A stretch of DNA of 18,599 nucleotides from a virus (lineage: Duplodnaviria > Heunggongvirae > Uroviricota > Caudoviricetes), in IMG/VR virus record IMGVR_UViG_2547132252_000005, positions 1 through 18,599 of that record; one strand, 5' to 3'. Position numbers and translations under genes: made by a program. Under the pieces are notes generated by a model. That model made no database searches. It saw only the letters and a list, made by a program, of their open reading frames with translations, and was not told where the DNA came from. This document shows, in pieces, positions 17,097 to 18,599 of this stretch (positions are counted from its first letter, which is position 1; each line of letters begins with the position of its first letter).

Positions 17097-17351
17097 GAAG
17101 AATATTTTGCTGAAAAATGAGGTTTGCTTACATGGACGGATAACACGAAATCCTGCAAATTGGCAAAATGTAAGTGAATAAAGTCAAAACAGTTGTTTAA
17201 CACTCAGGCACCGTAATGATGCCTTTGTCATTTCTGCGCATCTCACGCGCATCTCACAACACAGAACCTTTCAGGATGACCCTTGAGGATACCGGTTTGA
17301 ACCGCCCCGGAAATCCTGGAGACTAAACTCCCTGAGAAAGAGGTAAACAGG

Positions 17352-17678
17352 ATGACTAAAAATACTCGTTTTTCCCCCGAAGTCCGTCAGCTGGCGATTC
17401 GTATGGTTCTGGAAAGTCAGGATGAATATGACTCACAGTGGGCGGCAATTTGTTCCATTGCCCCAAAGATTGGCTGTACGCCGGAGACTCTGCGTGTCTG
17501 GGTTCGCCAGCATGAGCGGGATACCGGGGGCGGTGATGGTGGGCTCACCAGCGCTGAACGTCAGCGTCTGAAAGAGCTGGAACGTGAAAATCGTGAACTG
17601 CGCCGCAGTAACGATATCCTTCGCCAGGCTTCCGCTTATTTTGCGAGGGCGGAGTTCGACCGCCTCTGGAAAAAATGA
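17352..17678 (+). CDS. IS3-family transposase OrfA (HTH and leucine zipper)
   Basis: 108 aa; [50 protein letters not shown]... matches IS629 OrfA as I recall it. Confidence 0.88.
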
Positions 17679-18565
17679 TGCCACTGCTGGATAAGCTGCG
17701 TGAGCAGTACGGGGTCGGACCGGTATGCAGCGAACTGCATATTGCCCCGTCAACGTATTACCATTGTCAGCAACAGCGACATCATCCGGATAAACGCAGT
17801 GCCCGTGCGCAGCACGACGACTGGCTGAAGAGAGAGATACAGCGCGTATACGATGAAAATCATCAGGTGTACGGTGTGCGTAAAGTCTGGCGTCAGTTGT
17901 TACGGGAAGGAATCAGGGTGGCCAGATGTACAGTGGCACGTCTCATGGCGGTTATGGGACTTGCCGGTGTTCTCCGGGGTAAAAAGGTCCGTACGACCAT
18001 CAGCCGGAAAGCCGTTGCCGCAGGCGACCGCGTAAACCGTCAGTTCGTGGCAGAACGACCTGACCAGCTGTGGGTGGCTGATTTTACTTACGTCAGCACA
18101 TGGCAGGGCTTCGTCTATGTGGCGTTTATCATTGATGTGTTTGCCGGATACATCGTGGGGTGGCGGGTCTCATCGTCTATGGAAACGACATTCGTGCTGG
18201 ATGCGCTGGAGCAGGCGTTGTGGGCCCGTCGTCCGTCTGGCACCATCCATCACAGCGATAAAGGCTCTCAGTATGTGTCACTGGCCTATACGGAGCGACT
18301 AAAAGAAGCCGGATTACTGGCATCAACAGGGAGTACAGGCGACTCGTATGACAACGCGATGGCTGAGAGCATCAATGGTCTTTACAAAGCGGAGGTAATA
18401 CACCGTAAGAGCTGGAAAAACCGTGCAGAAGTGGAACTGGCCACACTAACGTGGGTGGACTGGTATAACAATCGACGATTGCTGGGAAGGCTGGGCCATA
18501 CTCCTCCGGCAGAAGCAGAAAAAGCTTATTATGCTTCCATCGGAAACGATGATCTGGCAGCCTGA
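17675..18565 (+). CDS. IS3-family transposase OrfB (DDE catalytic domain)
   Basis: 296 aa in the -1 frame relative to OrfA, with a DDE integrase core (WVADFTYV ... HHSDKGSQY ... [10 protein letters not shown]). Confidence 0.88.
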
Positions 18566-18599
18566 GTTCACAGATAAAACACTCTCCAGGAAACCCGGG

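Follow-up and report, generated by a model that had tools for sequence, protein, structure and literature searches.

The DNA analyzed here, referred to as the window, is a stretch of 18,599 nucleotides (nt) from a Caudoviricetes record of IMG/VR (IMGVR_UViG_2547132252_000005, positions 1–18599). It belongs to a lambdoid prophage that carries no Shiga toxin (Stx) genes, a DLP12-like element (ybcK...rusA, Q, tRNAs, esterase gene, S, R) known from E. coli O157:H7 strains, TW14359 among them. Near the right end of the window, a copy of the insertion sequence (IS) IS629 occupies the noncoding spacer that follows the endolysin gene R and that, in IS-free relatives, leads to the antirepressor-type gene ant (d_ant). 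The IS lies at the midpoint of a leader that precedes ant, after position 65 of 128 and 68–70 nt 5′ of the ant ATG. The window ends before the IS does, with the last 8 bp of the element missing. The features of this interval are as follows.

16343–16558, + strand: holin gene S, phage 21-type class II (Pfam Phage_holin_2_1, PF04971, 112.8 bits)
16563–17096, + strand: endolysin gene R, 177 aa (Pfam Phage_lysozyme, PF00959, 88.3 bits)
17097–17232, unstranded: 5′ part of the native R–ant spacer, noncoding, 100% identical to the IS-free VT2-Sakai
17233–17297, + strand: 5′ half of the ant leader, positions 1–65 of about 128 (covariance model R1, 51.8 bits)
17298–18599, + strand (the late-operon orientation): IS629, IS3 family, 1302 of 1310 bp present (alignment to reference copies)

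The holin and endolysin genes adjoin in the late operon, and both are intact and upstream of the IS. The holin gene is identical to its TW14359 counterpart, which bears the annotation class II holin, and the endolysin gene is labeled R or lysozyme in identical relatives. From the end of R to the left end of the IS are 201 bp (17097–17297), in which identical RefSeq relatives annotate no gene. This interval contains a weak terminator-like hairpin (GGCA at 17207–17210 with TGCC at 17220–17223) followed by a T-rich tract (17224–17233). An earlier sequence-only reading of this DNA had placed an IS629-like insertion directly 3′ of the endolysin gene, after some 200 bp of noncoding-looking DNA. Both statements are borne out: the IS begins at 17298 and differs from IS629 at 2 of 1302 positions.

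Comparison with IS-free relatives establishes the native order of the region. Positions 16900–17297 are 100% identical to many Stx-phage records, and positions 17080–17299 align to VT2-Sakai without a mismatch, with ant starting 68–70 nt further on. In VT2-Sakai, R and ant (570 bp) are separated by a spacer of 270 bp; Rz, within which Rz1 is embedded, comes next, and then bor and terminase. Stx2 phage I is arranged likewise. Of 71 complete E. coli genomes with coverage of 80% or more of positions 9000–18599, most match positions 9000–17299 at 99.9% in one piece and without the IS, including O157:H7 TW14359, E32511 and JEONG-1266. The non-Stx prophage of TW14359 reads R, spacer, ant, a 48-aa open reading frame (ORF), Rz (annotated as "lysis protein") and terminase. 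The placement of ant 3′ of R is also the normal layout in 933W/VT2-Sakai/Phi24B-type phages (PMC4426718), and 277 of 279 Stx phages have Rz (PMC8136144). Given this native order, the expected neighbor of R here is ant and not Rz. The sequence-only reading was right that no spanin gene is seen in the window and wrong to expect Rz/Rz1 directly after R, since ant intervenes in this phage group. By comparison with these relatives, the spanin genes would be expected ∼1 kb beyond the insertion and outside the window. Because the window ends inside the IS, the absence of spanin genes is a limit of view and not a property of the locus.

Sequence comparison further identifies the last ~128 bp of the R–ant spacer as a conserved noncoding leader preceding ant. 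In the IS-free VT2-Sakai this leader occupies 28076–28203 of AP000422. In a distant search, only the 3′ ~130 bp of the spacer (from 17235) were common to Salmonella P22-like phages, in which the element lies 3′ of Rz and 5′ of a Rha-type gene. A 17-mer from the element occurs in at least 120 IMG/VR contigs, with 102 distinct versions, and the element is present in 356 phage records and in 880 of 5,426 complete E. coli genomes (∼16%), at a median of 3 and up to 10 copies per genome, never annotated. It also occurs in phage records of Salmonella, Shigella and Klebsiella and in plasmid records of Klebsiella, Salmonella and Providencia. In every case the element ends in a Shine–Dalgarno (SD) sequence and the ATG of a cargo gene, with the SD 6–12 nt before the ATG in every variant, and the cargo itself varies: P22_AR_N+ORF11CD3 (the Stx-phage ant), KilA-N, KilA-N+P63C, KilA-N+ORF11CD3, Rha, AntA, ANT/KilAC, HNH_3 endonucleases and a TerB-family gene. 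A canonical intrinsic terminator usually lies 10–20 nt 5′ of the element (46–55 of 77 distinct flanks), where the window has the weak terminator-like hairpin. The leader has no match in Rfam 15 at gathering score in 12 sources and none that is credible at E≤10 for three variants, nor was a description of it found in the searchable literature (open-access papers only). On the evidence of Rfam 15 and the accessible literature, it is undescribed.

Leader–cargo cassettes can occur two or three to a phage, sometimes in tandem, as in L052 (599–730 and 1966–2094), L015 (2342–2463 and 2654–2782) and L083 (1356–1489, 3838–3969 and 9822–9944). In L015, L018 and L072, only an 11-aa ORF separates the first leader from a divergent second leader, which has a KilA-N gene. 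The TerB-family gene (Pfam TerB, 59.8 bits) follows a GC-rich leader variant in L083 (9822–9944) and also in L011, L027, L036 and L038, which are Stx-type phages; in L011 the TerB-family gene is cut to 16 aa. This cargo means that the leader is not restricted to antirepressor-like genes.

The leader, not the insertion, is the point of interest here. Consensus folding with RNAalifold yields a long hairpin formed by the pairing of CCUUU.AGGAUGA.CCUUG with CAAGG.UCAUC.CU.AAAGG, of which the final five bases are the SD. Five variants folded singly give the same hairpin with CCUUU:AAAGG paired (z-scores of −1.2 to −3.8). Two pseudoknots add to this fold. In PK1, UUCUGUG of the apical loop is paired with CACAGAA, the seven nucleotides that immediately precede the hairpin, and in PK2, GUGNGA of an internal loop on the 3′ side is paired with UCNCAC, the loop of a hairpin (H0) that lies upstream. 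The window retains the following parts.

17235–17251, + strand: hairpin H0, stem TGCGC/GCGCA and loop ATCTCAC (17240–17246), with covariation; loop bases 17241–17246 are the 5′ strand of PK2, which pairs with GUGAGA in the leader 3′ half of intact copies
17260–17266, + strand: 5′ strand of PK1, CACAGAA, whose partner UUCUGUG is now beyond the IS
17267–17288, + strand: 5′ strand of P1/P2, with the anti-SD CCUUU at 17267–17271, which pairs with the ant SD AAAGG in intact copies
17293–17296, + strand: 5′ strand of the apical helix P3, with the IS beginning two bases on

The base-pairing pattern is shown by covariation. Across 56 distinct sequences, 97.3% of cells are paired, compared with 26–49% when the partners are slid by 1–3 columns; a second such figure is 96.1%, compared with 25–56% when slid. 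In an alignment of 72 distinct sequences, fitted to the nested helices with PK1 and PK2 not in its model, changes on both sides are seen in 27 of 42 pairs, compared with 10.9 ± 2.0 in shuffled alignments, none of 500 of which reached the observed value. The inner part of P1 shows compensatory changes in 9 of 12 pairs once divergent copies are included, and the H0 stem covaries as well (UA/CG/UG and CG/UA). Individual pairs take as many as four Watson–Crick types and are hardly ever broken. At the central pair of PK2 the counts are GC 22, AU 20, UA 8, GU 2 and CG 1, with 2 unpaired. In PK1, the pair 60–119 is AU 37, UA 11 and CG 8 and the pair 61–118 is CG 44 and AU 11, with no more than one unpaired. 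There are eight complementary versions of each pseudoknot helix and five of the anti-SD:SD helix. The covariance model R1, built from the nested helices only with PK1 and PK2 left out, recovers divergent copies that lack the motif used in the search, and these keep all helices with different sequences; their anti-SD:SD pairing has a duplex free energy of −19 to −35 kcal/mol. It scores the window copy at 51.8 bits, compared with 146.2 bits for the intact VT2 type and 94.6–96.1 bits for the Stx2-phage-I type. G–U pairs are frequent on the + strand (for example, UG in 23 of 56 sequences at one P3 pair), which argues for an RNA of mRNA sense. Taken together, these comparative data indicate that the leader acts as a + strand RNA with hairpin H0, a long helix that sequesters the SD, and the pseudoknots PK1 and PK2. 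Two copies alone depart from this structure: L056, a natural chimera, and L018, which is decayed. L056 (2517–2645) joins a 5′ part of Stx2-phage-I type to a 3′ part of VT2 type, with mismatches in both PK1 and PK2; it may be a recent recombinant or a nonfunctional copy.

The insertion itself is specific to the window sequence among all collections searched. A 601-nt query across the left junction was not matched in one piece by any of 5,426 complete E. coli genomes or 50,697 phage records, and exact-pattern scans for the left and the predicted right junctions found nothing in IMG/VR, JGI metagenomes or GTDB representative genomes. Eight other genomes carry IS629-family insertions elsewhere in the R–ant–Rz interval: inside R (CEC08123 and two others), at codon 3–4 of ant (PV15-279), inside ant (7.1_Anguil and 2014C-4423), and just 3′ of ant (MB9-1 and O103 WL1467). 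All eight are collinear with the late region, with Rz annotated downstream or with ant resuming where the fetched stretch ends. Clean target duplications of 3–4 bp flank six of the eight; O103 WL1467 has none, and one further insertion has an imperfect one. The search that found these insertions joins same-strand pieces only, and an orientation bias near ant is therefore not claimed. The three insertions inside R lie in the same prophage as that of the window, in the complete genomes of CEC08123 (L003, 13912–15221), NCCP 14541 and CEC03102, with the target duplication AAG. These are real hits on the lysis cassette, unlike the window insertion.

The interpretation that best fits these observations, and in which we place considerable confidence, is a simple transposition of IS629 into the R–ant spacer of a non-Stx lambdoid prophage that split the conserved ant leader RNA and hit no protein gene. 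A simple insertion predicts that beyond the IS would lie a GTT target duplication, followed by ant, a small ORF and Rz/Rz1; the predicted right flank is (G)TT-TGGCTGTCGG...ant...Rz, and likewise GTT-TGGCTGTCGGTGCC...ant. The apical loop, the PK2 partner, the SD and ant would thus have been displaced by 1.31 kb. In its native form, as comparative analysis suggests, the leader would by default prevent ant-type cargo genes of the late region from being translated from late transcripts, until it is opened. Read-through by Q-antiterminated polymerase is a likely source of these transcripts, given a terminator upstream and no sigma-70 promoter in a scan of the spacer, and RNase III cleavage of the long P1 duplex is a candidate opener. 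Because the IS separates the 5′ strands of the anti-SD, PK1 and PK2 from their partners, the native fold must be abolished, and the normal control of ant is presumably lost in this prophage.

Several observations weigh against this interpretation. The right end of the IS and everything beyond it lie outside the window, and the junction is in no collection searched, so that collinearity with ant is an expectation drawn from relatives. Matching target duplications were reported at only 21 of 47 IS629 copies in four O157 genomes (PMC3271280), and IS-associated rearrangements are thus not rare. The function proposed for the leader comes from comparative analysis, and no promoter was found in the spacer. 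The single-sequence folding z-score of the 181-nt region is −0.32, which is unremarkable. Finally, in a nested-only model of a hypothetical read-out transcript, which joins the IS right end to the 3′ half of the leader, the SD G residues are still ∼70% paired, compared with ∼87% in the intact leader.

The sequence-only reading had offered a different account, in which the IS would have broken up a real small gene and may have eliminated or moved the spanin genes, setting the prophage on a path toward defective lysis. A short ORF does run into the IS, as that reading noted, "hypothetical protein" is annotated in the spacer of some GenBank phage records, and the window shows no spanin gene. The reading frame concerned is nonetheless not a gene.

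17216–17326, + strand: chimeric 36-aa ORF running from the spacer into the IS, not a gene; an exact-product look-up found no record

The IS-free form of this ORF is 39 aa long; it is the "hypothetical protein" of those GenBank records, is left unannotated by the NCBI annotation pipeline PGAP and has no Pfam match. Across 87 distinct variants, ORFs in the same frame range from 5 to 81 aa, and the peptide switches frame after residue 7 or so. In Stx2 phage I the frame of the 39-aa ORF is stopped after five codons, and spacer indels between variants are not multiples of three. Since neither frame nor length is conserved, the read-in ORF is not a gene. A small-protein hypothesis that covered the 39-aa ORF and an internal 19-aa ORF, MTLEDTGLAVGAFLWAGFL, was likewise rejected because the frame is not conserved. 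Nor does the rest of the account hold: the IS hits no protein gene, the spanins of this phage group normally lie ∼1 kb further on, after ant, and Rz persists 3′ of the neighboring IS insertions, past which the late region continues. With S and R upstream and untouched, a lysis defect is not expected from the insertion alone; Q-modified polymerase should traverse the IS, and we see no basis for such a defect. We therefore regard this account as highly improbable. Alternatively, the IS could mark the edge of an IS629-mediated rearrangement (an adjacent deletion, an inversion or IS–IS recombination), such that ant and Rz/Rz1 no longer lie beside R. The frequency of unmatched duplications, the two neighboring insertions with none or an imperfect one, a window that ends within the IS, and the absence of the left and predicted right junctions from the collections searched would all accommodate this. 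Against it, all eight neighboring insertions are collinear with the same late region, and the left junction is a clean IS end against uninterrupted native sequence. We consider such a rearrangement unlikely, if still worth weighing.

It could also be that the conserved spacer element acts as DNA (a module boundary or recombination sequence, an operator, or folded single-stranded DNA) and not as an mRNA leader. The element does sit where cargo genes are exchanged, H0 is palindrome-like (GCGC-N7-GCGC), and one natural chimera, L056, exists. However, a boundary or an operator does not require that complementarity be kept between segments 50–95 nt apart through eight versions each, G–U pairs are tolerated on the + strand only, and one strand of the main helix is the SD 6–12 nt before the cargo ATG in every variant; L056, which breaks both pseudoknots, is a single exception. 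A role as DNA is thus quite unlikely. As for an assembly artefact, in which the join of spacer and IS would be chimeric in a draft contig, the window does end inside a multicopy repeat and has several private single-base indels relative to 99.9%-identical genomes as well as two private substitutions in the IS, and all three hint at an error-prone source. Yet spacer and IS meet exactly at base 1 of the left inverted repeat, as in true transposition, and assemblers normally break at repeats without making precise joins between inverted repeat and flank. An artefact of this kind is hardly to be expected.

The value of these findings lies in the leader rather than in the insertion. This unannotated element of ~128 nt shows unusually clear covariation for two pseudoknots and SD sequestration, and it precedes antirepressor-like genes, which can decide prophage induction. 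We tentatively propose, as a possibility well short of a conclusion, that it represents an undescribed class of double-pseudoknot riboregulator that, on a specific signal, gates the translation of antirepressor-type and other late cargo in Stx, lambdoid and P22-like phages, and that IS629 has uncoupled ant from it here. Candidates for that signal, if such a gate exists, would be RNase III, a protein, a small RNA (sRNA) or temperature. Uncoupling of ant could then alter the cross-induction of coresident prophages, including Stx phages. A genuine translational gate would also provide a testable handle on late-region antirepressor control in Stx phages and would constitute a new structured-RNA family.

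It is useful to contrast this leader with known systems. With P22 sar/ant, P1–P7 c4/ant and Gifsy-1 IsrK/anrP (PMC12197685 in part) it would share in outline the pairing of RNA at a ribosome-binding site that holds off antirepressor translation. In contrast to these, the proposed blocking strand here lies in cis within a double-pseudoknotted leader, and the cargo includes KilA-N, Rha, HNH and TerB genes; the c4 and isrK Rfam families give no match to the leader at E≤10. Leaders that sequester the SD are known elsewhere, the lambda N leader is opened by RNase III, and the preQ1-II and SAM-II riboswitches are pseudoknots. The likeness of our leader to the lambda N leader, preQ1-II and SAM-II is one of analogy only, consisting of an SD buried in a helix that is stabilized by long-range or pseudoknot contacts, and it has no homology to any of them. 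By analogy with the lambda N leader, RNase III could plausibly cut the long P1 duplex, which reaches 21 bp. Within its own phage group, the window shares with the R–ant(d_ant)–Rz/Rz1 region of 933W/VT2-Sakai/Phi24B-type phages a spacer that is 100% identical up to the insertion and the same holin and endolysin types, whereas here the spacer is split by the IS and the prophage is a non-Stx relative. The control of d_ant that has been proposed for that group, in which the small RNA 24B_1 pairs inside the gene, does not involve the ant leader. A LexA box that might control ant was looked for by eye, and no CTGT-N8-ACAG motif was seen.

The leader also accounts for a tandem duplication to which the sequence-only reading had drawn attention just upstream of the IS.

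17236–17257, unstranded: 2×11-bp direct repeat GCGCATCTCAC, equal to the H0 stem and loop, then the 3′ arm and a second TCTCAC

The duplication is an exact tandem; by chance, 18.6 kb should contain only ∼0.004 exact 2×11 tandems. IS-free phages carry it unchanged, and it therefore predates the IS. It is part of a conserved hairpin. Other leader variants keep the GCGC arms and not the repeat.

The left end of the IS629 copy, TGAACCGCCCCGG, starts at 17298, and the copy carries the following features.

17298–17322: left inverted repeat (IRL), 25 bp, identical to the annotated IS629 IRL
17352–17678: orfA, 108 aa (HTH_Tnp_1), intact
17675–18565: orfB, 296 aa (rve, 96.9 bits), intact
17670–17675: A6 slippery run
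17633–17749: ALIL frameshift pseudoknot (Rfam, 118.8 bits)

Together, orfA/orfB, the A6 run and the ALIL pseudoknot form the −1 programmed frameshift arrangement of IS629 and the IS3 family. The two mismatches in 1302 bp (99.85% identity) relative to the IS629 copies of VT2-Sakai and TW14359 are private, nonsynonymous substitutions in orfA: T at 17392 (R14L) and G at 17647 (K99R). The K99R change also falls in the ALIL pseudoknot, at the base of its first stem. No IS629 copy with both changes occurs in the 5,426 complete E. coli genomes. In identity, IRL, orfA/orfB, A6 run, ALIL element and prophage location, the copy resembles those of other O157:H7 prophages (VT2-Sakai gene H0115, AP000422; the P gene of TW14359), and it differs from them in these two substitutions and in an insertion site that is absent from all collections searched. 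IS629 has no sequence-specific target, and 62% of its copies sit in prophages (PMC3271280). The same prophage in TW14359 (L004, 1316–2625) carries IS629 within the replication gene P, which is intact in the window (5362–6063, 233 aa), and the IS629 profiles of the two strains thus differ within one prophage. The insertion is an ordinary new IS629 site, site polymorphism of this element being routine in O157, and the site is at most useful as a strain marker.

Elsewhere in the window, a SASA/DUF6645 (NanS-p-like) esterase gene (13715–15663) is split into three ORFs, compared with an intact 648-aa gene in TW14359. The single-base indels relative to TW14359 in this gene lie at 14363, 14689/14692, 14966, 14981 and 15049, and further private indels are found at 6847 and 13493; the split gene is either a pseudogene or a sign of error-prone source sequence. 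Rfam matches at gathering score 3′ of Q comprise three tRNAs (12951–13199, + strand), STnc100 (13312–13505, + strand) and the anti-GcvB sRNA AgvB (13506–13567, − strand). The latter two form the convergent sRNA pair typical of the pR′ moron site.

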